The position numbers and the translations under genes are program-made. A DNA stretch of 64,000 nucleotides from a virus: the IMG/VR virus record IMGVR_UViG_3300042452_000786, positions 11,875-75,874 of that record. One strand, given 5' to 3'. Shown here one piece after another: positions 3,181 through 55,437 of this stretch (position 1 is its first letter; every line of letters begins with the position of its first letter). The notes below the pieces were generated by a model. That model searched no databases and had not been told where the DNA came from. It was given only the letters and a program-made list of their open reading frames with translations.

Positions 3181-4014
3181 ATGTCTACAGTTGTATCTCA
3201 ACTGACGACTGCACAACAGCTGATCTACAGCCGTACTCGCATCGTCAACTCCACATCAAGGATTAGCCCTGAATTGTATGGCAGCCTTGAACCCAGAGAC
3301 ATCCTTTCAATCTCCCTGCAAGGAGACAAAGTTCACTGCCTACTTGCAGATGGAGAGATTGCAGTTGATCGCTCAACTGTTATTGCCAACTTCTGGGAGT
3401 ACAGGACACGTACACCCTCGTTCTTTGACTACAAGATTTGGCGCCAGGTAGAAAATCCGGAGGGGTTTTCAGGTGTTGCAGTTGGTGCAATTAATTATTC
3501 AATGATTCCAAACCGCATTGCCGTTGATCGACACGGGGTCCGCAAGCTTTACTTTGTTAACGAAAACGAGAAGCTGTGCACCTGTGGTTCCTGGCAACAA
3601 CTTAATGAACACAAGTTGGAACTGGAAAAAGAGTTTAAAGAGCACGGTCAACGTTGCTTTGAACCTACCTGTAAGCACTTAAGGTGGGCTGAAGCCAACA
3701 CCAAGCTGCAGGCGCTGCGTTACCTGACAAAAGATAACAAGGGAGAATACAACCCACGGCTTTGTGTTTACACTTTTGATCACCGCCGTGGCATGCTTCT
3801 CTATCGCATCACCTATGACGGAGTAAAAAGTAAAGGTCAATGGTTTCCAGTTGAAGGCTGGAAAGAAAAAGAAGTCTATGGAAAGAGCGGTATTCCTAGC
3901 GGAGAATGCTGGGATACTTTCTTTTCTGCTCTAAGTCAGACTGAACCATTCAAGCTTGTCAAGTTTTCGCACGGTGTTGCAAGCTTGATGAACAGCACAC
4001 GTTCCAAAAACTGA
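3181..4014 (+). CDS. SWIM-type zinc finger protein
   Basis: CTCGSW...PTCKH motif. Confidence 0.55.
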
Positions 4015-4031
4015 TTACCCACGAACACATC

Positions 4032-4628
4032 ATGGCTGACAAACAGAGTTACATTCAATTGGCAGAATCCGTTCAGCACATTACTTTTCTCAAAGATTTT
4101 CCTGACGCCAGTGAAGATGAGAAGGCTGAGCTGGAGGCGCACCTCAAGGATCTTGCTTCCAGGCAAGAGTCCAAGTTTGATTCAATCATTGGATTGATCA
4201 AGAAGTGTGATGCTTATATAGATGCATTGCAGAGTGAGCTTGATGAGATTAAAACAAATCTTGATGCTTGGAAGAAGAACAAGGAGAAGATTACGAACAT
4301 TATTAAGTTTGCTTATCAACAGGATCTGATTGGTGGTACGCCAACAGGTGTTAAGTATCAAGCAACTATTAAGCGCGTTAAACCTAGGTTGGTTGATAAC
4401 TTTGAGCACTGGAGCGATGCGGAAAAAACGGAGTACGGACTGCGTAAAACAACGACCGTTACACGGATCAAAGATGACGTTGTTGTTGACGTTAAGCAGG
4501 AGGATCTTCCTGATAAAACACGAGTCAGGGAATCGTTGACTGCGGATGACGGGGCTGCTCCAGTGTCGTCCCAGCTTGTTCCTGGGTTTGCGTTTGTGTA
4601 CGAACGTCGTAAGAGGTTGACAAACTGA
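4032..4628 (+). CDS. siphovirus Gp157-like coiled-coil protein
   Basis: K.D.I..LIK.......AL..E...I......K.....I pattern. Confidence 0.55.
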
Positions 4629-4641
4629 TAAGATAAAAAGC

Positions 4642-4820
4642 GGGTGCGCGTCAGGCACATAGCCTGAAAGGCGGCCCTTGCTAAGTCCTGGGTTTCCAGG
4701 CCAGGGGGATGGCCTCCCCTGCTCGAAGGGTGCAACAAGGAACGTTGCATTAAACGAAGGATCCCCTCAGCCACATCGTAGAAGCACTGTTAAGGTGATC
4801 GTGGGTGGACATCCTCGCCC
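4642..4820 (+). ncRNA. candidate structured non-coding RNA, ~180 nt
   Basis: GC-rich intergenic stretch with at least five stems and 5'/3' end pairing; see findings. Confidence 0.5.
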
Positions 4821-4841
4821 TACATTTAATCTGTGTTAATC

Positions 4842-5006
4842 ATGCCTCAAAAGAAACCCGGCGACCCCGGCCTTTACGCAAACATTCGAGCTAAACAAGA
4901 GCGCATCAAGCAAGGCAGCGGTGAAACCATGCGCAAGCCTGGCGAGAAAGGCGCTCCAACAGAAAAAGCATTTAAGGATTCCGCTAAGACTGCAAAGAAA
5001 AAGTAA
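4842..5006 (+). CDS. small basic protein, 54 aa (absent from ORF track)
   Basis: GLYANI.AK..RI..GSGE.MRKPG.KGAPT..AFK.SAKTAKK, a recognisable small phage protein pattern. Confidence 0.75.
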   Translation: MPQKKPGDPGLYANIRAKQERIKQGSGETMRKPGEKGAPTEKAFKDSAKTAKKK

Positions 5007-5578: not shown

Positions 5579-5768
5579 AGATCAACCGGACTGGGTCTGC
5601 AACAACTGCAATGAACAGTTTGGAAAATGGTGGGTCGATGATCAATACATCGGCCCTTCTTCTTATTACGCCACGTACCACTCAGGTCCCTGTGAAGTCT
5701 GTAACCAAGTCAAATACGTTACAGAAGCCAGGGATTTTGGTTATCTCAGATCTGACTGGAAGAATTAG
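5568..5768 (+). CDS. small CxxC/CxxC zinc-binding protein
   Basis: WVCNNC...CEVC....VTEARDFGYL. Confidence 0.6.
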   Translation: MTSKDQPDWVCNNCNEQFGKWWVDDQYIGPSSYYATYHSGPCEVCNQVKYVTEARDFGYLRSDWKN

Positions 5769-7078
5769 CGGCTGATCTCTTCGAAGTCCATCGAAGCGTA
5801 AATGTTTGCTCCATTTGAACTTGCAGCCGCAACTAACGTCAATTCATACGGCGTGCTAGTAAACGGTTCTCGTTCCAGCTGGAACTTAAACAACGCTTCT
5901 TTAAGGATGTCAATTGTGTTGCGGGATTGGTTGGATGCACTGGAGTAACCAGAAGCAAGGATGCGTCCGCTAGCAAACGATGTTCCTGTGATGTTGTACT
6001 CAACTGCAGAATCTACTCCGGCGCTTACCCACGTACCGCCTGTTGTTGTTCCGCTTGCAATGACTTGCCAGTTGTAGTTAGCGTTGTTTGTAATGCCCAT
6101 AATTGAAAGGGCTGTAAGAATGACAATTGCATCTAAACGATTGGGAGAAGCTTTAAGGCGAATTGAGATTACAGGGTAGTAAGTTCCTGCTGTGGTTAAA
6201 GCATGAGGTGTAGTAATCGGAACGCTGATTGCTTTCTGAGCGCCACGTAATTCGTATCCTCCTTCTGATAAAACAGAAGAGCAAATTTGTTTTAGCGTAC
6301 TGCTACTTGCTGTTGTTGCTGTGTTTTCAATCTCATAACGCAGCGGCAGAGAAGCAGTCGTAATGTACGTTGATGCAATTACGTTTGCATGTTGGAACAC
6401 GTGGCAAGCAACAAACTTGCCGTCAATAACAAAACCCAGCCGCACACTGCCAAGACCTAACCACTCAATATCCATCCACAGGATTTGAGCTTTGGTAACA
6501 TCCAAAGTCATTCCGGAGATCCCCGTTCCATCCAAGGGATCAAGGTTCCAGTTGGATTGAGAAACTCGTGTTTCAGTTACTGTTCCAGTAACAATGCTGC
6601 GTTCAACAAAAGAAAGGGAGTTAGCACCTGTGCCGTTTAGCTCCAGGTACATGCCATTGTCGTTGCCGTAATAGCCGACACGCTGTCTCAACCCTGTTTT
6701 GGCAGGGCTCATTACAAAAGTACTCAGCACCAGCAAAGATTTGCCGGGTTGGTAAGAAAAAACTTTGGTGGTTTCGCGGTAAACCCTGGAGCCAGATGTA
6801 GTCGTTACGGCTAAATCAACTAAACCTTGGTTGGCGTTAAACGTTGTTGTGCCACCAGATGCAGTAGACGTTGCCCACAGCCCGTTCTCCCGGTAACGAT
6901 GGCTGGAATCAAACAGAGTCAAGGGCGTAGAAACCCGAAGGCGACCAAAAGAATCAATAGAAGAAGGTTGTGCTGCTGTACCAGAGTCAAGAATGACCCT
7001 CAGTGGTTCATCCAATAAACCGGATACCTTAACTACCTCGTAACGAGCTTCATCTCTTGGGTCAATAATTGTTGCCAC
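5765..7078 (-). CDS. putative virion structural (beta-rich spike/fibre-like) protein
   Basis: DSFGRLRVS.P.TLFDS, YQPGKS, WLG.G.VR.GF motifs; Ser/Thr rich; paralog of 30969..33893. Confidence 0.6.
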   Translation of the reverse strand: MATIIDPRDEARYEVVKVSGLLDEPLRVILDSGTAAQPSSIDSFGRLRVSTPLTLFDSSHRYRENGLWATSTASGGTTTFNANQGLVDLAVTTTSGSRVYRETTKVFSYQPGKSLLVLSTFVMSPAKTGLRQRVGYYGNDNGMYLELNGTGANSLSFVERSIVTGTVTETRVSQSNWNLDPLDGTGISGMTLDVTKAQILWMDIEWLGLGSVRLGFVIDGKFVACHVFQHANVIASTYITTASLPLRYEIENTATTASSSTLKQICSSVLSEGGYELRGAQKAISVPITTPHALTTAGTYYPVISIRLKASPNRLDAIVILTALSIMGITNNANYNWQVIASGTTTGGTWVSAGVDSAVEYNITGTSFASGRILASGYSSASNQSRNTIDILKEALFKFQLEREPFTSTPYELTLVAAASSNGANIYASMDFEEISR

Positions 7079-10449: not shown

Positions 10450-13053
10450 GTGACGACAGCAACCCCGGAGCCACAGCGTCCAAGGAAAGGTCTCAAGCCT
10501 GGACAGATTGATCTCAGTCTGATACCGGTTGATTGGGCGCTTACTCCGCTGCGGGATAAGCGTGCATACGTTGCTGGTTGGACATCTCAACCTTTTTCCA
10601 TTGAGCAAATCCGCAAGGAGCTGGATGAAGGGCGTGCGACTGGGGTTGGCCTTCTGAGTGGACAGTGGTCCAATGAATACGCGCTTGTTTGGGTTGATAT
10701 TGATGGTCCGGATGCCATCCCAGCCTTAGAAGAGCTGGCTGGTGGTCAACTTGATGTTATTTTCCCGCCCACACTGACTGTTTCATCGGGTAAGCCCGGC
10801 AGGCAGCGGATGCTTTACAGCGTCCCGACAGCCAAAATTCCGCTGTTGCCGGATAAAGCAACAATCAAAATCGGAATTCCGTCGTTTGAAATCCTGTTTC
10901 GCTCCAGGCAAGGAGCAATCATGGGTGTCCATCCTGAAACGGAAGGATACTATACAACAACCCACGGTGGCTTTGAGTTTGCTAAGAATCCTCCGGAGCT
11001 GCCGGAGTGGATGTATGCCGCAATTGGTCGTGCTTTTCCCACCAACAAGTACCGCAAACCTGTAACCGGTGGTGTAGTAACTCAGAGCATCAACATTCAC
11101 TACGAGGATGGCTCTAAGTTCCAGATGGAAGAAGCCGTCAACGAGGCCAAGGTTTACCTGGAGCACCTTGACCTTGAACGGGCTATCGATTACGAAGAGT
11201 GGTTAGCCGTAGGTATGGCTCTCCACCAGGTGGATGATTGCTTGCTCAGTTCCTGGATTGAGTGGTCTGCTCAGGCAGAGAACTTTGAGGCGGGTGCTTG
11301 TGAAGATAAGTGGCGCACATTTGAACGGCTTCCAGGTGGTCCAAGTCCTGAAGGTGCTCGTGGTCTGCAGACGCTCAGGGCAAAGGCAAAGGAAGATGGT
11401 TACTTAGAGCTTGGTGGTTTTGTTGTTGAATCACCTGAAACTCTTGCACAGCGTGCTCAAGAATTGTTTGGTGAAGAAGGAGAAGGCGAAGAAGGTGCTT
11501 TTGTTCCTGGTATTGCTGGTCTTTTTCAACGGAACATGCGGCATCTTTTTGGTGGCCCTGATGAAGATGAGGAAGAGGAAATCAGGAGCACTGCAAAAGG
11601 ACGTGGTCGTCCAAAAACTCCACCGTCGTCGGAGCTGGCAAATCTTGTTACCGGAATGGTTAATGAGATTGGTTGGAGGTACGACCCCAAATACGACACC
11701 TTTATGTTCTACCACCGCGATCGTGGTATCTGGCGTCGTGAAGACTATGCTCAAGAATTTAAGCACACGGTTCAAGATCTGTTTATTCGTGAAGCAATCC
11801 CCACGCCAAGTGGTTTTACCTCTCACTTAATCAATGACGTTGTCAACCTGACTCAGGCGTACATCTCGCAGCCTGATTGGAATGACGACGACGACATGCT
11901 GGCTTTCAGTAACGGTGTCCTAGAGATCAGTACCGGTGAATTTTTGGACCACGACCAGGAAAACTACCTGACCTGGGGTTTGGATTTTGATTATGATCCC
12001 AGTGCTGACCCTGGTCCCATCATTGATTGGCTGCGTCGGACGCAATACAACGATGAGGATCGGGTCCAGGTGCTCAGGGCCTGGTTAAGAGCTTGTCTGC
12101 TTGGGCAAGGTCACGAGCTGCAGCGTTTCATGGAGGTCATTGGTCCGGGAGGTCGTGGTAAATCGACTTTTGCTAACCTCTGCTGTGCTCTTGTTGGCTC
12201 AGGCAATTACGCCAGTACAACGTTGAACCAGCTGGAGCAGAGTCGGTTTGAGGTGGCATCTATTAAAGGGAAGCGGCTGACACTGATCAATGACTCGGAA
12301 CGTTACGGCGGTTCTGCTCAAATCTTTAAGGCCCTGACCGGTGGTGACAATCTTCGCTTTGAAGAAAAGAATAAGAATGTGGGTGAACCGTTTGTGTACA
12401 CCGGCATGGTTATGGTCTGTGCCAACGAACCAATTCAAACTACAGACAATACTTCGGGTCTTACCAGGAGGAGGCTGACGCTTGAGTTTAATCGTCCCCT
12501 CTACGATAAAAACTCGGAAGCCAAAGAGATGATTAAGCTCGATAACGGTATTGTAAGAGGCTTATGGAAGAATTATTTACCCGGCTTGGTGAACTGGGTT
12601 CTGCAGATGACCGACAAAGAAATGCGGGAATATCTGTTGGATACTTATGACAAAGTCCCATCGTTGCGTCGCGTCAGGAATGAAATCCTACTGAACAGTA
12701 ACAACTTGATTGAGTGGCTGCAGTCAGAAGTTGTGCATGCTCCAGATCACACCTCTTCTGTTGGTAAGAAGATTCCAGCAGCAAAGGATGCTCCAGAGCG
12801 GTACAACAACAGCAATCACCACCTGTATGCAAGCTACTGTTCTTACGCGGAAGATACTGGTAGTAAGCCAGTGGGCCAGAAACGATTTATTGCTTTGCTG
12901 TTAGATTGTTGTGTCAACCAGCTTGGCCTGAAAGATGTGCGTCAGTTCAGCAAGCAAGGTCGTCCATTTATTAAAGGACTTGCTATCCGAGCTGGAGATA
13001 CCAAGTTTCAGGATTATCCGACTATTCTTCCTGAAGGAATGAAGGATTTGTAA
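10450..13053 (+). CDS. Prim-Pol/PriCT-2/D5-type SF3 primase-helicase
   Basis: WVDID, YEEW..VGMAL, F.NG.L, Walker A GPGGRGKST, K.LTGGD, motif C AN..RR. Confidence 0.92.
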   Translation: MTTATPEPQRPRKGLKPGQIDLSLIPVDWALTPLRDKRAYVAGWTSQPFSIEQIRKELDEGRATGVGLLSGQWSNEYALVWVDIDGPDAIPALEELAGGQLDVIFPPTLTVSSGKPGRQRMLYSVPTAKIPLLPDKATIKIGIPSFEILFRSRQGAIMGVHPETEGYYTTTHGGFEFAKNPPELPEWMYAAIGRAFPTNKYRKPVTGGVVTQSINIHYEDGSKFQMEEAVNEAKVYLEHLDLERAIDYEEWLAVGMALHQVDDCLLSSWIEWSAQAENFEAGACEDKWRTFERLPGGPSPEGARGLQTLRAKAKEDGYLELGGFVVESPETLAQRAQELFGEEGEGEEGAFVPGIAGLFQRNMRHLFGGPDEDEEEEIRSTAKGRGRPKTPPSSELANLVTGMVNEIGWRYDPKYDTFMFYHRDRGIWRREDYAQEFKHTVQDLFIREAIPTPSGFTSHLINDVVNLTQAYISQPDWNDDDDMLAFSNGVLEISTGEFLDHDQENYLTWGLDFDYDPSADPGPIIDWLRRTQYNDEDRVQVLRAWLRACLLGQGHELQRFMEVIGPGGRGKSTFANLCCALVGSGNYASTTLNQLEQSRFEVASIKGKRLTLINDSERYGGSAQIFKALTGGDNLRFEEKNKNVGEPFVYTGMVMVCANEPIQTTDNTSGLTRRRLTLEFNRPLYDKNSEAKEMIKLDNGIVRGLWKNYLPGLVNWVLQMTDKEMREYLLDTYDKVPSLRRVRNEILLNSNNLIEWLQSEVVHAPDHTSSVGKKIPAAKDAPERYNNSNHHLYASYCSYAEDTGSKPVGQKRFIALLLDCCVNQLGLKDVRQFSKQGRPFIKGLAIRAGDTKFQDYPTILPEGMKDL

Positions 13054-48047: not shown

Positions 48048-50000
48048 TCAAACGATGGTGAAAGCTGCGGTGACGAAGTCCTTGTTCAGGTTGGCAAAGC
48101 CAGCGTACAGCTGCCAAATCAAGATGATAAAGCGGCTGAAGTCATCGTTGTTGTTGATGAGAACCTGAGCGTTGGGGCCACCGATGCCCACGCCAACGGC
48201 CTGAGGACCGAAGAACAGAGCAGGAGGAGTGTTGTGAGACACAGCGCCGAGACCGTCGCCAGTGTCCACAGTGATGGACTTGTCAGCAAAGTTGGTGGAC
48301 TCGAAGAAACGTACGCCTTCAAAGACAAAGCCAGAAGGCATGATCGGTTCACCAGCCACGAATTGAGCTTGGCCGTACTGACCGCCGCCATAGATGGAGG
48401 CGTTGGGAGCCATGGCACCCATAAGGGGGTTAGGCTGGCCCATGCCAGGGTAACGAGCCACTTCACGGAAACCTTGGTCAGCACGCAGATCCTTCATGAA
48501 AGAGGGATCAGCAATACAGCGGTAGTAACCGTCAGCAAAGACAGGCACATTGCGCTTGCGGAGTTGCTTGACAACTTCCAGAAGGTCAGTTTTGACGTTG
48601 AACTTATAACGCTCAGAAGCGTATTCTGTAGCGGAATAAGCAGTCAGCGTGGTAGAGCCAGTCTTGATCTTACCGTTGGGGTAGTAGTAACCACCTTGGG
48701 TGTCAGAAGAGGCACCACGAGCTTCCGATTTCGAAAACTCATCAAGGAACACACGATCGCGCCAGCGGCGATAGTCGTCTAGCAGGGTCAGCGAACCGAT
48801 GGACTGGTGGAACATGTTAAGGTTCCCGGTGTCCAGCAGCAGACGCTGAGCGGTCATCAGAGTCTCACGAGCAATTTTGAAAGTGCTCGGGAGGTTGGAG
48901 TTGTTCGGGTCGGCAGGACCAGTGTACTCACGCAGAGAGACGAGCACTTTGTCCTTAACGATGGAGCGGCTATTAGCCGTACCAATCGTTTGGTCTTGGG
49001 TACGCTCACGCTGAGTTTTGGTGCCGGGGTTGCCCCAGAAACGGTACCGGTCTAACTGAACAGTTTGACCAGGCTGTTTAGTGAAGTCGTGGACAACAAC
49101 AGGCTCGGCTGCCATTTCCACAATATAAGCCGGGTGGGGACGGTACAGCTCCGCGCCCAACAGCTTGGGAAAATCGTTCTCCTGATCTCCAGTCTCCTGA
49201 AGGGGTGGACTATCTCTTCACCCTGTAAGGGTGCCGGGCGCTAATGGCGTATTACGAATGAAGCGTCATTCACCGCCTAGTCTCTGCACCTTCCAACTAC
49301 GTACTTAGTTGGCTTGGCTCAGGATTACCCTCGACTTGACGTTAGGGCTTCCCTGAATTCACCCGGTTTTCACTGATCAGTTGCCTGATCAGGCGACAAC
49401 GTTGACTACTCAGCTAAGTCGTGTTAGGATTGGAATCAAGTTGTTTTTATACAACATGGAACCAAAACTTGTTCCTGGATTTGAAAACCTTTACTTGAGC
49501 TTTTCTGGGACTCCTTATCAAAAAATCAATGAAGACTTTGTTGAATTAAAGGTCAGCTCATCAAGCATGTACGACAGGGTTTCTGTTCTTAAAAATGAAA
49601 AGAAAGAAAGGCACCATGTACACGTTCTTATGGCTGTGACATTTTTAGATTTAGATTTAGCTTTACACGGAACCGGAAGTGCTTCTCTTCAAGTTGATCA
49701 CAAAGACGGAAACAAAAGAAACAATTCTCTTGAAAACCTTGAAGTTGTTACAAAAAGAGAGAATTACGATAGGGCGTTAAAAGCTGGGTGCTACTCTAAA
49801 AATGGTTACGCCAGTAAAGGTAGGCCAAAGAAAACATTAAGAAAGTTTTCGGAGGATGACATTGTGCAGATTAAAGAAATGAGATCAGACGGTCTTTCTT
49901 ATAGAAAAATTGCTGCTTACTTTAACTGCAATCACTTGGCCATTTATCAAATCTTAAAAGGAAAAACCTATCAGGATCTGAGTTAGCTATCGATAAACAT
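48048..50000 (-). CDS. major capsid protein (N4-gp56-like), spliced: join(complement 49989..50000, 48048..49178), 380 aa
   Basis: Position after portal and scaffold; G.TVQ..RY, GV.F.EST, ALFFG..A.G, D..R...L.W motifs; in-frame join gives MFID-NDFPKLLGAELYRP. Confidence 0.85.
49179..49988 (-). mobile_element. group I intron (810 nt, IC-type core)
   Basis: P AAUUCAGGGAA, Q AAUCCUGAGC, R GUGCAGAGACUA, S AAGAGAUAGUCC; exon ends in U, intron ends in G; P1 CGAU/AGC pairs with GUUGUCG. Confidence 0.92.
49456..49986 (+). CDS. intron-embedded HNH homing endonuclease, antisense to the host gene
   Basis: VH.L.A..F, VDHKDGNK.NN...NLE.VT..EN, C-terminal HTH. Confidence 0.88.
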   Translation: MEPKLVPGFENLYLSFSGTPYQKINEDFVELKVSSSSMYDRVSVLKNEKKERHHVHVLMAVTFLDLDLALHGTGSASLQVDHKDGNKRNNSLENLEVVTKRENYDRALKAGCYSKNGYASKGRPKKTLRKFSEDDIVQIKEMRSDGLSYRKIAAYFNCNHLAIYQILKGKTYQDLS

Positions 50001-50416: not shown

Positions 50417-50853
50417 CAGCGGTTACCTTTCTTTTGGGGAACGGGAGGCATAATACCCATGGGAAGTTGTCCACGCATCGGCATCATTTGTGACATCATC
50501 ATTTGCTCACTGGCGAGCATCTGATCTTGTGTAATTTCTGTTGCTTTAACATTACGATCTGTAAACAAACCATGTTGTGGCAACGGAGATCCTGGAAGGT
50601 TTAACTTTAGGTAGGCAGCATCCAGGTTTTGTGCCATTGGAGGTTGCGGAGCACGAGGATCACCAACACCGGTTCCGTCACTCATCATTCGCACAGCAGC
50701 AAAATGATCTGTGTTACCTGCTTGAACCTGCTGTGCAAGATCGTAACCACCAAAACCAACCAATGAAGGTGAGCCAATTGGTCCGCCAGCTGTGCCAATA
50801 CTGGCCAAGAACTGTTGCGTCCTGGCACCCACACTGGCTTTTTTTGATGCCAT
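50416..50853 (-). CDS. hypothetical protein
   Basis: 145 aa between scaffold and capsid genes. Confidence 0.6.
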   Translation of the reverse strand: MASKKASVGARTQQFLASIGTAGGPIGSPSLVGFGGYDLAQQVQAGNTDHFAAVRMMSDGTGVGDPRAPQPPMAQNLDAAYLKLNLPGSPLPQHGLFTDRNVKATEITQDQMLASEQMMMSQMMPMRGQLPMGIMPPVPQKKGNR

Positions 50854-50865
50854 TTTTTTAGAAAC

Positions 50866-50891
50866 AAAAACGGGGCAGCTATTGCTACCCC
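50866..50891 (-). terminator. intrinsic terminator after the scaffold gene
   Basis: GGGGTAGC-aata-GCTGCCCC then GTTTTT. Confidence 0.7.
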
Positions 50892-50946
50892 TTATTTTAC
50901 AGTTACTATGTTTTCTAATAAACGGATTATATCAACAATCCGAGTA

Positions 50947-51948
50947 TCACTCCATCACCATCAGCTTCTGACGGAAAGCATCGGGAGATGCCATGTTCAG
51001 ATAGCGCCAGGCATTGGAAGGATCACGTTCGGCCAGAGCACCAAAACCGTTCCAGAAGTCAGCGGGGTTGCCCTGAACTTGGGGCTGCGGGGGAGCAGGC
51101 ATTTCAGGACGCTGAGGAGCCACAGGACGCTGGAACTGTTGACCAACGGCTTGAGGGGCACGGCTGTAACCAATTTCTTCATCGGGCACCGGATAGGGGC
51201 CATTTTCACCGAAAAACTCACAAGTGTAGTCAGCCAGGACGTCCGGATCGGTCAGGATGGTCTCATAGGAGCGGTGCTCGTTAGAGAGTTCCTGGAGCAG
51301 ACCAACAGCCTCAGTGAGCTGCTGGTTGGTAGCAATCAGAGCATCTTCTAACTGACACGCGTAGCTATTGAGAATAGCTGGCACGTCAGCACCGAAGTGA
51401 TCAATGACCTGAAGACTAGCTTCGCTTACCCCGCTTGCGCGGAGTTGGTCCGGGCTGATTTCCTGCGAAGTTTGGGAATAACCGTTGGAGTAAGCCTGGT
51501 TGTTGTTGATCCCAGGCATAGAGGTCGGCATCCCCGCGTTGTTGTACTGGGGAACCGGTTGGGAATTGTAGTTGACCGGTGCGACTTGTTGGTTCGCGCT
51601 CGATTGTTGACCCTGGAACGGGAATTGGACGGGCGAACTCAGGAGCCCCACTACCCGGTTGAATGCCTCCTTGTAAGGGTTCTCCGATTGTGGTGCTGTT
51701 TGTTGGGGCGCCAGGGATTCCTGGTGGTAGTACGGTGTAGGGCTGGATTGGTAGTTGCTGACCCCCATCTGGGCCTGCATTTGCGGGGCTGGGGCCACCG
51801 CTTGCTGGTAAGGCGCCACCCATTGGGGAGACGTTGCCACCGCCGGGGCCTGAGCCGCCGTCTGTGCTACCGGAGCCGCGTAGCTGATCGGCTGGGTCTG
51901 GGATACTTGGGGTACCGATTGGATCGGCGCTGCGGTATCGGCCTGCAT
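50947..51948 (-). CDS. putative capsid scaffolding protein
   Basis: AGAGGT RBS 5 nt before ATG; Q/P/A-rich N-terminus, central coiled coil, helical C-terminus; between portal and capsid. Confidence 0.65.
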   Translation of the reverse strand: MQADTAAPIQSVPQVSQTQPISYAAPVAQTAAQAPAVATSPQWVAPYQQAVAPAPQMQAQMGVSNYQSSPTPYYHQESLAPQQTAPQSENPYKEAFNRVVGLLSSPVQFPFQGQQSSANQQVAPVNYNSQPVPQYNNAGMPTSMPGINNNQAYSNGYSQTSQEISPDQLRASGVSEASLQVIDHFGADVPAILNSYACQLEDALIATNQQLTEAVGLLQELSNEHRSYETILTDPDVLADYTCEFFGENGPYPVPDEEIGYSRAPQAVGQQFQRPVAPQRPEMPAPPQPQVQGNPADFWNGFGALAERDPSNAWRYLNMASPDAFRQKLMVME

Positions 51949-53683
51949 AGGTTACCTCTTTTTGTAGGCTTTCGAGAGTTCGGTAAAGGAAGGGAGTGAG
52001 ATCTAATCTCGGATCCGCAGCCATCGGAAGATTGGGTTGCTGCGGATGTGGTGTTCGCATCTCTTGATTGATTAGATCAATAAATGCGGAGTAGGCCCTC
52101 TGTACTTCCCCTACCATTCGGAATGGGAAACCGGAGAGCATTCCCGCGATTTCGTCATCCGTTTTTGAAGGGAATAAATACTTCAGTGCTTCAATGCTAT
52201 CAACACCTAATTCTTGTAGGTTACGAGTAAAGATAGATTGGTTTAATTTGTCCTGTGCAGTATCTTCATAAACGGGTCCCATCCAGCGCCAGTTAACTAC
52301 CCGATCCCCGTCTGGCGCTAATCCAAGAACGCCATCAGGTACTTCTTTTGTTTCCAGGGCAGTGTCAATAGCTTTTTGAAGTTTTTTTTCATACGCTGCT
52401 TTTTGTTTGTCGTATTTAATTTGCGCAGCTTCGTCATTAGGATCTTCCGGAGGAGCCGGATATTTGATGCCGGAGGCGTACGCCAAAGACTTACGGAAAA
52501 TCTGTTCCTCCTGGAAGATCATTAATTCAAAACACTTGCACACTCCATAGGTATAAAGTTGTAAGCATTTTTTCTTTGCAGTAGCACTTACGCGTCCATA
52601 AGCTGATTTAATCTCCGTAGCTGTTACATTTGTAATGCTAAGGTCATCGATACCACCTAAAGCAAGCCGGATCTCATTACGAAGTTGTTCGGAATACCGA
52701 GCTTGATCAGAGCTAACAGCATTGGGAGTAATGAAGCCAACACGATCAGTTGGCTCCAGGTTTGCAATGACTCGTGGTACACGCATGCCACTACCTGGAC
52801 GCCCAATGTATCCAGGAGCCTGGCGACTTACGTTGTCTTGTTTGTACGTTGAACTTGAAAGAAAGAAGTCTGATTGGAATCCAGATTGACTGGAAATGCT
52901 GGGTCTCTGCGCAACATCATTGTCTTGGCTTTCAATAATGTCTTGCTTGGGGCGAGAAGAAAGAAGAGTAGGGTTGCCAAAGAATGAAAGGTTTGCTCTG
53001 ATATTTTTAACCATTTCATCGTGAGCAAGAATTTGATTGGATAACCACTCAAATTCACCTACACCTTCTGTGCCAAAAGCATCGGGATTGTTAAAGACTT
53101 CAATGCAAGGAATAAATTCCATTGTATTGATTACAGTCTTTTTTTCGGTTATACCAAACTCCATGTTTGGCATGTCGAATGTAATTTCTTGTTCGCTGTG
53201 GAACTCTTCGATTTCTGTAGCGGTAATGCGAAGCCGCATGTAACGCTTATCCGTATTTAAACCAACACCCTGGAAGCCACGCGAAGCTTTAACTTTGTAC
53301 GGATAAATGATGATAACTTCTTCTAGTTCACCTTCTGGAGAGTAATAGGTTCGATACGCGTCTTTATCAAACCAATAAAGGCGGTACGTTTTTTTGGTAG
53401 GACGTATATAGAAAAGACCTTTTCCGTAGCACAAGAATCGATCCCAAATGGAATCGAGCCTGGCATCGAGCTTGTTAAATTTGATGACTTGTTGAATGAA
53501 GTCAAACCGTTGAGTACCAAAATTATCTTGCTGCGGATAAAACTCAACTCCCTGACGCACCCCAAACATTTTCATTTGGGATAGGTGCGCATTAACCAGC
53601 ATGGTGTCAGCCGTGCCGGTACCATCGCGGTTTACGACGGCTTTGAGGATAGCGTCGAGTGCGGATTTACTACTATCGCTCAT
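51416..53683 (-). CDS. portal protein with long C-terminal extension
   Basis: Large ORF downstream of TerL; P...V.N......G..E, V.W.W.PV.E motifs. Confidence 0.7.
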   Translation of the reverse strand: MSDSSKSALDAILKAVVNRDGTGTADTMLVNAHLSQMKMFGVRQGVEFYPQQDNFGTQRFDFIQQVIKFNKLDARLDSIWDRFLCYGKGLFYIRPTKKTYRLYWFDKDAYRTYYSPEGELEEVIIIYPYKVKASRGFQGVGLNTDKRYMRLRITATEIEEFHSEQEITFDMPNMEFGITEKKTVINTMEFIPCIEVFNNPDAFGTEGVGEFEWLSNQILAHDEMVKNIRANLSFFGNPTLLSSRPKQDIIESQDNDVAQRPSISSQSGFQSDFFLSSSTYKQDNVSRQAPGYIGRPGSGMRVPRVIANLEPTDRVGFITPNAVSSDQARYSEQLRNEIRLALGGIDDLSITNVTATEIKSAYGRVSATAKKKCLQLYTYGVCKCFELMIFQEEQIFRKSLAYASGIKYPAPPEDPNDEAAQIKYDKQKAAYEKKLQKAIDTALETKEVPDGVLGLAPDGDRVVNWRWMGPVYEDTAQDKLNQSIFTRNLQELGVDSIEALKYLFPSKTDDEIAGMLSGFPFRMVGEVQRAYSAFIDLINQEMRTPHPQQPNLPMAADPRLDLTPFLYRTLESLQKEVTYAGRYRSADPIGTPSIPDPADQLRGSGSTDGGSGPGGGNVSPMGGALPASGGPSPANAGPDGGQQLPIQPYTVLPPGIPGAPTNSTTIGEPLQGGIQPGSGAPEFARPIPVPGSTIEREPTSRTGQLQFPTGSPVQQRGDADLYAWDQQQPGLLQRLFPNFAGNQPGPTPRKRGKRS

Positions 53684-53701
53684 TGCTGCTTAAGAGTCAG
53701 A

Positions 53702-53884
53702 TTATTCTTCAATATCGTAGCCAGCGGAAAGCCGTTTGAGTGTGATGATGTCATCTTCAACCTCAACTTCAAACCTTTCATTTGGTTGAAGGGCCATGTC
53801 GTGGCACAGCTCATCAGGAAGAGGAATGACTGCAGAACCGTAAGCGTCTTGCTCCAGTTCTACATTGTAATAGCTGGTAGACAT
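53702..53884 (-). CDS. AbrB/MazE-like protein
   Basis: G..VIPLPDEL...M.L......E.EVE.D.I.LK. Confidence 0.7.
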   Translation of the reverse strand: MSTSYYNVELEQDAYGSAVIPLPDELCHDMALQPNERFEVEVEDDIITLKRLSAGYDIEE

Positions 53885-53913
53885 TGTGAGGGTGATTTCT
53901 TTAGTTTAAATCG

Positions 53914-55437
53914 TCAATACTCTAACTGCAGTGCGCCTCTGGTCATTAAGCCATTGCACAACCAAATTAACGCGTCAACGCAGTCGTCATGAGAGCTTAC
54001 ACCAAAGTTTACGATCTCATCTGTTAAAGCGCCAAATCTGCGAAACCTGTTAAAGATGATTTTACGCTGCTCAAACAAACCCATGATTCCTCTAAACCGC
54101 GCAACTTTATCCCCACGGAAACCTTTTACTGCATGCCAGTTCATGTTGTAAAGCCCGTGTTCGCCTAAACAAATTCGTTTAAAGTCTGCCTCCAGGGATG
54201 CTTGGTATGCGACGGCTTCTGACCAAATGTCAATGTGGCTTCCCGTTGGGAAGTATTGATTCTTATCTTTGTGGATGACGCCCCATTCTTCCATCATTTC
54301 CATTAAGGCTTCCAGTTTTTCTAGGTTGCCCATAATCCGGAGACGTTTGGAATCAATGATATGAATCTTGTCTCCGACACGCCCACCCATTACAAAAACG
54401 GTGTAGTCATTACGTTCTCGTACACCAGCGGAAAGATCGACGCCAACGCCAAGGGTGTCGAATTGTGTAGCGATGTTTCCTTTAACAATCAAATCTGGCG
54501 AAAGAGACAGCTCGCTGGTTTGAACAATTTGGTTTTGATACTGAAAGCTGAATGCAATGGGAGCTTGGCGACGCCTGTCTTGCAGGTATTCCAATGACCA
54601 CATTTCGGGCCAGTATGATTCTTCGTCTCCGTGCTCATCTACGGTAATTGCTGATTGAACGATTTGGACCCAATCATTAGCTGGAGTAAAAGTACTGTTG
54701 TGAATGTCGTCGTGCCGGAAACGTGTGCCAAGGCAAATGGCGCGTCCGCCTTCAAACATAGTAGGAACAATAACTGAGTTCCAGTTATCTTCCATTGCTG
54801 ATCGGATGTCGCGGTTTTTAATATCGTCGGCACTCTTAATAGCATCATCGATAATACACAGATGGGAACGCTTAGAGGTCACAGCACCTTTAAGACCAGC
54901 ACAACAAACAGTGAATTCTTCTTCACCTGTTGATTTAATGCCTGCAAATTTCCAATCAATACTCCAGTATTCATTGGAGTTAATTCCTTTGGCAATTTTT
55001 ACCATTGGAAAAACTTCTTTGTATGCTTTGCTTTCTTCAATAATTCGTTTAATGGCCGCGCTTTTGGGACGGGCAACATCAACGGTGTATGAGATATAGA
55101 GAATTTTTAACGGTTTTTTGTGCAGAGCGTGAACACCAACTGCCCAAGCAGTATAGAGACCTAAGATTGTTGACTTTGCTGAACCGCGAGGTGCCAGAAT
55201 GTCAATGTTTGGTCCACCAATGCCGATTAAACATTCAGTGCTTTCGTTAGTACAGAGATAACGGTGCCATTCTTTGTGATGTCGTGCTGGCGGTTTGTCA
55301 CCTACAACGTCACAAAAATAAGCAAAATCTGTACGTGCTCTTTCTATGTCAATATCTGTTGTTTTTTTAACAACGCGTTGCTGTGCTGCTGCACGAGCAG
55401 TACGACGGTAAACGGAATAAATGCTAGTGCCTGCCAT
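53914..55437 (-). CDS. terL: terminase large subunit
   Basis: Walker A APRGSAKST, Walker B CIIDD, GTRF..DD, nuclease GVDL..D.T and HDDCVDA. Confidence 0.93.
   Translation of the reverse strand: MAGTSIYSVYRRTARAAAQQRVVKKTTDIDIERARTDFAYFCDVVGDKPPARHHKEWHRYLCTNESTECLIGIGGPNIDILAPRGSAKSTILGLYTAWAVGVHALHKKPLKILYISYTVDVARPKSAAIKRIIEESKAYKEVFPMVKIAKGINSNEYWSIDWKFAGIKSTGEEEFTVCCAGLKGAVTSKRSHLCIIDDAIKSADDIKNRDIRSAMEDNWNSVIVPTMFEGGRAICLGTRFRHDDIHNSTFTPANDWVQIVQSAITVDEHGDEESYWPEMWSLEYLQDRRRQAPIAFSFQYQNQIVQTSELSLSPDLIVKGNIATQFDTLGVGVDLSAGVRERNDYTVFVMGGRVGDKIHIIDSKRLRIMGNLEKLEALMEMMEEWGVIHKDKNQYFPTGSHIDIWSEAVAYQASLEADFKRICLGEHGLYNMNWHAVKGFRGDKVARFRGIMGLFEQRKIIFNRFRRFGALTDEIVNFGVSSHDDCVDALIWLCNGLMTRGALQLEY

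Follow-up and report, generated by a model that had tools for sequence, protein, structure and literature searches.

A long same-strand +1 overlap between the portal gene and a putative scaffold gene in an S-EIV1-like cyanophage

Can two core head-assembly genes of a tailed phage be read in different frames from the same half kilobase of DNA, or is one of the two frames open there for no reason of its own? Long out-of-frame overlaps are a textbook trait of tiny viruses, while in tailed dsDNA phages such overlaps are regarded as rare and short, the Rz/Rz1 spanin pair being the standard exception. The question is raised by a stretch of 64,000 nucleotides (positions 11,875 to 75,874 of IMG/VR virus record IMGVR_UViG_3300042452_000786), referred to below as the window. 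Its source is a freshwater S-EIV1-like cyanophage, and the locus of interest lies within the head module, where the portal gene remains open for 533 nt beyond the start of a scaffold-like gene. Among tailed phages, genes unusually seldom overlap over such a length. The evidence set out below makes it very probable that the portal/scaffold overlap is a genuine and ancient same-strand +1 overlap of the head module.

The overlapping frames and their conservation

Four features define the locus:
51416 to 53683, minus strand: portal gene, 755 aa (ORF; start ATG at 53683, TAG stop at 51416–51418)
50947 to 51948, minus strand: scaffold-like gene, 333 aa (ORF in the +1 frame relative to the portal)
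51416 to 51948, minus strand: overlap of 533 nt, very probably dual-coding (portal codons 579–755 plus the stop; scaffold codons 1–177)
51946 to 51961, minus strand: putative scaffold translation start, AAAGAGGT (GAGG at 51955–51958, TAA at 51952–51954, ATG at 51946–51948)

A preliminary description of this DNA had proposed a 533-nt same-strand overlap in which the portal frame stays open for about 177 codons beyond the scaffold ATG, and had noted a good ribosome-binding site, a Gly/Pro-rich portal tail, a Gln/Pro/Ala-rich scaffold head and a raised GC content. The ORF coordinates agree with this, and so do the other measurements. By sequence inspection, the GAGG is spaced five bases from the scaffold ATG, and it is kept in all 74 close loci. 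The portal tail is 18% G and 17% P, and the scaffold head is 17% Q, 14% A, 12% P and 12% S. GC content is 0.55–0.62 across the overlap versus 0.39–0.46 (about 0.43) in the portal body. Since the TAA at 51952–51954 stands in the scaffold frame, the ATG at 51946–51948 is the earliest start available to that frame; this ATG is formed within the conserved Tyr-Ala codons of the portal (TAT GCA). The scaffold-frame protein begins with MQADTAAPIQSVPQ, and the portal ends with ...PGLLQRLFPNF...RKRGKRS.

Three frames are in fact open over the overlap, namely those of the portal and the scaffold and one on the plus strand (51397–51999). The last, an antisense ORF of 200 aa, was rejected as a coding candidate after its frame was found to be interrupted in relatives, and its openness in the window is a by-product of the GC-rich, stop-poor composition. 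A second antisense ORF, of 48 aa (52084–52230), was rejected as well, as in-frame conservation was absent in relatives.

Conservation of the arrangement could be followed over a wide range of divergence. In the 74 complete loci close to the window, both frames are retained without exception, as are the ATG, the stop before it and the SD sequence. For more distant portals, an exhaustive search of representatives (307 matches) supplied the seeds, and among related loci with enough downstream DNA the portal stop is crossed by a +1 ORF in 215 of 215, a set with 171 distinct overlap sequences, portal identities of 29–100% and overlaps of 266–638 nt. These overlaps measure 266–341 nt in a short-tail clade and 464–638 nt in a long-tail clade. 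Nine further loci have no crossing ORF because their contigs run for no more than 106 nt past the portal stop. In a more distant clade (L240–L248), a +1 overlap of 65–569 nt occurs in nine of nine loci. In most clades, including those with portals only about 29% identical, the scaffold ATG sits on a portal [NST]-Y-[GA] motif, and the stop upstream of it is also held in position in most of them. The openness of both frames in relatives, which the preliminary description had named as a check, was thus seen in 215/215 and 9/9 loci, none with a stop; the early portal stop near EVTY, named there as an objection, is absent from all relatives.

Chance expectation and selection in the two frames

How often such frames would be open by chance was estimated by resampling codons from portal-body usage while the residues of one frame were held fixed. 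A synonymous shuffle within the region itself is a weak null, because codon usage there has already been shaped by the overlap. In the window, with the portal residues fixed, about 67% of resamplings have an open +1 frame, so that by itself an open +1 frame here proves little. The corresponding probabilities in other deep clades are 0.021, 0.003, 0.026 and <0.0003. With the scaffold residues fixed instead, the portal frame of the window was open in 0 of 4000–5000 resamplings, and in every clade it was open in at most 0.3%, with 5–15 stops expected. The case for dual coding is therefore argued from the relatives and from substitution patterns, which point the same way, and not from the open frame of the window.

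These substitution patterns were measured as nucleotide diversity at codon positions 1/2/3 among 70 close sequences. The portal body gives 0.10/0.05/0.46 and the C-terminal part of the scaffold gene 0.14/0.10/0.45; for the overlap, with codons taken as the portal reads them, the values are 0.21/0.09/0.18. Synonymous diversity goes from about 0.5 in the body to 0.01–0.4 in the overlap and back to about 0.45 directly past the portal stop. The suppressed synonymous variation that the preliminary description had anticipated was accordingly found, as a collapse in each frame within the overlap, and a deeper set and two independent clades show it too. The ratio of portal position-1 to position-3 diversity, which across the body (546 sliding windows) is at most 0.84, has a median of 1.12 and a maximum of 2.9 in the tail.

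A further estimate came from an OLGenie-like count, which was the author's own and not the OLGenie program, and whose estimator carries a bias in +1 frames. The scaffold frame gave an NN/NS of 0.30 (0.22–0.40), a sham frame in the portal body 0.67, and the portal an NN/SN of 0.38. A control in the stretch upstream of the overlap was likewise low (0.24, with a wide interval); given this and the +1-frame bias, the ratio is supportive but not decisive alone. Taken together, the substitution data indicate that both frames are under purifying selection, and that the constraint forms a mosaic, with some segments dominated by the scaffold frame and others by the portal frame.

The mosaic can be followed through four motifs:
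51607 to 51681, minus strand: scaffold-head motif NPYKEAFNRVVGLLSSPVQFPFQGQ, residues 90–114 (the head's sole confident helix; scaffold-frame constraint dominant)
51605 to 51643, minus strand: portal-tail motif PEFARPIPVPGST, residues 681–693 (the tail's sole confidently modelled piece)
51467 to 51532, minus strand: portal-tail motif DADLYAWDQQQPGLLQRLFPNF, residues 718–739 (portal-frame constraint dominant)
51419 to 51439, minus strand: basic portal C-terminus RKRGKRS (a basic end occurs in nearly all relatives of 560–840 aa)

In the scaffold-dominated segment at 51613–51684 (scaffold residues 89–112), amino acid diversity is 0.12–0.27 for the scaffold versus 0.29–0.50 for the portal, and the diversity of the scaffold-head motif at scaffold positions 1/2/3 is about 0.08/0.09/0.32, position 3 being portal position 1. 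The portal-dominated segments are the YAGRYR junction at 51925–51948 and the DADLY...QPGLLQRLFPNF motif at 51469–51540; in the segment of the second portal-tail motif listed above, amino acid diversity is 0.19–0.32 for the portal versus 0.36–0.59 for the scaffold. The scaffold-head motif and the first portal-tail motif share 37 nt, where synonymous diversity is about zero, and over the whole of that portal motif it is 0.00–0.09 in two independent clades. The roughly 40 nt at 51605–51643 are hence a core constrained by both frames. As to the age of the two frames, raw codon usage correlates with that of the genome at r 0.25 in the portal tail versus 0.20 in the scaffold head, values that favour neither; in the deepest clades a helix in the scaffold head occurs alongside the motifs of the portal tail.

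The two proteins and the alternative readings

The predicted architecture of the two proteins, both encoded on the minus strand, is as follows:
Portal residues 1–578, minus strand: portal body (confident AF2 model)
Portal residues 579–755, minus strand: Gly/Pro-rich tail, predicted to be disordered (AF2 pLDDT < 50 for most of it)
Scaffold residues 1–160, minus strand: Q/P/A-rich head, predicted to be disordered (AF2; one helix at 91–104)
Scaffold residues 166–246, minus strand: predicted helical domain (AF2, confident)
Scaffold residues 295–332, minus strand: predicted C-terminal helices (AF2)

The gene for the second protein sits between the portal gene and an intron-split major capsid gene, and this position, together with the predicted helical architecture, which is suggestive but unspecific, would make the protein a scaffold. 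Homology to a known scaffold family was not found by sequence or by fold: profile searches returned no Pfam or PHROG match for the protein, and Foldseek no PDB fold match for its AF2 model. The nearest named clusters in ESM-Atlas are the scaffold families PF09306, PF14265 and PF05396, at the level of a lead (0.78–0.80). The single helix of the head (residues 91–104) has block-mean pLDDT values of 73 for residues 91–100 and 63 for residues 101–110.

The adjacent capsid gene has a feature of its own. RNA contigs from two metatranscriptome runs, belonging to a phage 90–95% similar, join 49177 to 49988 and skip 810 nt. This joint is absent from DNA runs, and it fits intron splicing in the capsid gene.

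Where translation of the scaffold-like protein begins determines how much of the overlap is read twice. The ATGs upstream of its helical domain (51948, 51780, 51768, 51531 and 51519) all lie within the overlap, the next start candidate is a GTG at 51384 within the helical domain itself, and the window has no ATG from 51519 to scaffold residue 283. With a conserved domain from residue ~166, the position of these ATGs entails at least 100 nt of dual coding at a minimum. The conserved N-terminus and the start context point to 51948 as the likely start. A start downstream of 51416, which the preliminary description had named as a possible objection, would forfeit conserved, codon-patterned sequence, and even the last of the ATGs, 51531 and 51519, are inside the overlap.

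The strongest competing reading is that only the portal frame is translated over most of the overlap, the scaffold starting at 51531, 51519, GTG 51384 or past the portal stop, with the long +1 ORF a side effect of Gly/Pro-rich portal codons. It can appeal to the roughly 67% chance openness in the window and to the GenBank entry for the homologue in phage S-EIV1, a protein of 133 aa that begins past the portal stop. Yet the same null gives 0.02 to <0.0003 in other clades, and 0 of 224 loci have a stop; the ATG and its upstream stop are held on the portal Y-[GA] motif in most clades, to about 29% identity; the head motif varies at scaffold third positions, which are portal first positions; and the late starts have to contend with the ATG-free interval between 51519 and residue 283. 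A late scaffold start is accordingly judged quite improbable.

The GenBank entry itself merits a closer look. Synechococcus phage S-EIV1 (KJ410740) is the only isolate with this module. Its portal-like protein AHV82224 (767 aa) is 51% identical to that of the window, and the homologue of the scaffold-like protein, AHV82225, about 41%. Much like the window, S-EIV1 has a +1 overlap, here of 554 nt, with the same start context, and its conserved second ORF (5751–6728, 325 aa, beginning MQDATVQSIPQ...) starts 554 nt inside the portal gene. In contrast, AHV82225 as deposited (CDS 6327–6728, 133 aa) begins past the portal stop, leaving the overlap unrecorded. The N-terminus of AHV82225 is probably mis-annotated, and the error has probably spread to relatives.

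On the preferred reading, in which both frames are coding, ribosomes starting at ATG 53683 would translate 755 codons, stop at the TAG (51416) and yield the portal body with its 177-residue tail. Other ribosomes would initiate independently at ATG 51948, with GAGG upstream, and yield the 333-residue scaffold-like protein. Both arms are of low complexity and predicted to be mostly unstructured, with the constraint divided between them along the shared DNA.

The preliminary description had also allowed for a frameshifted portal-scaffold fusion, and such a product would arise, beside the two separate ones, if ribosomes were programmed to shift by +1 past the TAA (51952–51954). The frames do stand in the correct +1 relation, and the SD-like GAGG lies just upstream, as at the prfB +1 site. 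However, inspection of 51900–51960 for frameshift signals (slippery site, stimulatory stop, rare codon, structure) revealed none: the junction has neither an in-frame stop nor a rare 'hungry' codon, and it lacks a conserved slippery pattern. The junction sequence also differs among clades, and a fusion is not needed to account for the two proteins. This part of the earlier proposal gained no support, and a fusion product is regarded as very improbable, somewhat more so than a late start.

The first protein can be assigned with more assurance than the second. Sequence matches to known portals are weak (phrog_64, E 4e-4; PDB profile, E 0.11), and phrog_20475 matches it over its full length, tail included (E 2e-210). 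Its AlphaFold (AF2) model has a mean pLDDT of 74, with residues 1–578 confident, and the top Foldseek matches to this model are phage portals without exception (probability 1.0, E 2e-10 to 1e-5), including those of LME-1, 80alpha, T7, SPP1, lambda and T4. On the strength of these models, the protein has the phage portal fold and a tail predicted to be disordered. Residues 582–755 have pLDDT < 50 except for residues 681–700, which reach block means of 74–79 and contain a strand at 693–695, and a short helix at 731–735. The gene for TerL adjoins the portal gene upstream (53914–55437; Terminase_6C; phrog_38, E 1e-77).

The terminase gene varies in length across the lineage. The large terminase ORF has some 830–846 aa in S-EIV1 (L001, 544–3084) and some close relatives, and 507–516 aa in the window (53914–55437) and other relatives; L002, L004 and L006 contrast in the same way with L005. 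The difference could be an N-terminal extension or insertion.

A disordered tail invites the opposite reading of the overlap, namely that the scaffold is the real gene and the portal tail a tolerated, functionless read-through. Besides the predicted disorder, this reading has on its side that protein evolution is about twofold faster in the tail than in the portal body. Against it, the portal frame is expected to meet 5–15 stops given the scaffold residues and stays open in at most 0.3% of resamplings. The tail motifs [LI]PxPGST and QPGxLxQLFPxF (QPG[IL]LxQLFP[TN]F) and the basic end persist in portals to about 30% identity, portal-dominated segments exist, and the phrog_20475 profile spans the tail. 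A functionless tail is thus the less probable even when set beside the frameshift. On the preferred reading, the tail may lie inside the procapsid, with its basic end contacting DNA or the scaffold core.

An assembly or sequencing artefact (a lost stop or an indel) or a chance ORF, which has nothing in its favour beyond being a general possibility, can practically be dismissed, as the same arrangement recurs in more than 220 independent contigs and one isolate genome, at least 80% of the stretch's sampled words are contained in 16 lake/freshwater metagenomes from 16 studies, and the two of these compared by contig (X1 and X4) have contigs covering the overlap with no indel listed. One metagenome contig spans 49908–52211 with five mismatches and zero gaps. 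The indel or lost stop that the preliminary description had kept in view is therefore contradicted by independent assemblies. RNA contigs from two metatranscriptome runs cover 51734–52707 and speak at most to transcription, not to translation, start sites or expression level. True dual coding of two disordered regions, the central proposal of the earlier description, is upheld by the relatives, the substitution patterns and the predicted structures.

In two lake metagenomes, contigs break or branch at about 52150–52222, with loose ends and junctions at 52187–52211. Such breaks are as expected if co-occurring strains share a nucleotide-conserved island.

The upstream stretch and comparison with known systems

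Constraint on synonymous sites extends beyond the overlap on one side:
51949 to 52210, minus strand: portal-only coding stretch, codons ~492–578, with low synonymous diversity and excess RNA folding

Synonymous diversity in this stretch is 0.07–0.27 versus about 0.5 in the portal body, a suppression of about two- to fivefold. It replicates in the S-EIV1-like clade and is weak in a third clade. The effect is asymmetric, with diversity normal directly beyond the overlap on its other side. No conserved alternative ORF was found for 51949–52210 among the relatives, an Rfam search of 50800–52600 returned nothing credible, and a sigma-70 consensus scan of 50800–53900 found no promoter. A recent recombination sweep was considered as the cause of the low diversity and rejected: distances are unimodal, with 46 haplotypes, and those of the portal body and the scaffold C-terminal part are still correlated (r 0.73–0.74).

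RNA folding may offer an explanation. Compared with synonymous-codon shuffles, 90-nt windows from −240, −150 and −120 have mean z values of −2.2 to −2.9 and fold better than the shuffles in 10 of 10 sequences, the mean being about zero further upstream. RNAalifold gives a weak consensus for the stretch (−11 kcal/mol). The MFE structure that the window's own sequence forms here is only 73% paired across 40 relatives with few compensatory pairs, so that covariation adds thin support. On this basis the favoured, though tentative, reading is an RNA element that acts in cis on scaffold expression, with the odds leaning somewhat against it, and the tie between this stretch and the overlap is putative. 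Were it correct, the upstream constraint may control the translation of a highly expressed gene with its start inside a weakly expressed one. Of course, suppression in the absence of a second ORF means that some non-coding constraint acts nearby and could add to the signal in the overlap. The position-specific patterns within the overlap cannot come from such a constraint.

What the two arms might do for one another is a matter for conjecture. The scaffold head may recruit or contact the portal. The coupled stoichiometry that the preliminary description had suggested gained no support. A more elaborate scheme, in which the overlap serves head assembly beyond mere compression, the disordered portal tail and scaffold head being partner arms with short motifs interleaved on the shared DNA and touching at the portal vertex while the upstream structured RNA sets the ratio of scaffold to portal chains, is unlikely as a whole, although less so than any of the competing readings weighed above. 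If true, partner arms plus an RNA element would give tailed phages a new type of module in which expression and assembly are coupled in cis.

Independently of that scheme, two core head-assembly genes share 0.07–0.64 kb in every examined member of a widespread freshwater/marine lineage, to portal identities as low as about 29%. Gene callers and the sole isolate record truncate the second gene, and hundreds of proteins of the lineage in databases probably carry a wrong N-terminus. S-EIV1, growing on Synechococcus PCCC-A2c, provides a culturable system for the locus. No published description of a portal/scaffold overlap was found in the literature; the S-EIV1 genome paper lay outside the searchable text.

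Long overlaps are rare in phages of about 80 kb. The closest precedents among tailed dsDNA phages are the spanin genes, lambda Rz/Rz1 and T7 18.5/18.7, which are also same-strand +1 overlaps of genes serving one shared process. Rz1, of about 60 codons, is fully embedded, and both are lysis genes. Here, by contrast, the overlap comprises 177 codons (up to 212 in relatives) and runs from the 3′ end of one gene onto the 5′ end of the next, the genes belong to head assembly, and both arms are predicted to be disordered.

Nested head genes are a second point of comparison. In lambda C/Nu3, P2 O and Mu I/Z, head genes are nested in frame and one product is a scaffold. As in the present locus, two assembly proteins come from a single stretch of the head module. 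Frame and residues are shared in those systems, whereas here the frames differ and the proteins have no sequence in common.

Overprinted genes of small phages (phiX174 A/B/K and D/E) and of eukaryotic viruses (reviewed in PMC8227390) resemble the locus in their out-of-frame dual coding, disorder and suppressed synonymous change; disorder is enriched in gene overlaps (bioRxiv 10.1101/229690). The difference is one of setting, in that phiX174-type overprinting occurs in tiny genomes under strong size pressure and the present overlap in a phage of about 80 kb. Finally, the constraint on the HIV-1 tat/rev overlap is described as segregated between the frames (PMC9119678). The likeness is conceptual, virus and proteins being unrelated, but in both cases constraint appears to alternate between frames, and the portal/scaffold locus would add to such systems a natural, deeply sampled case of two disordered proteins that time-share DNA with their motifs interleaved.
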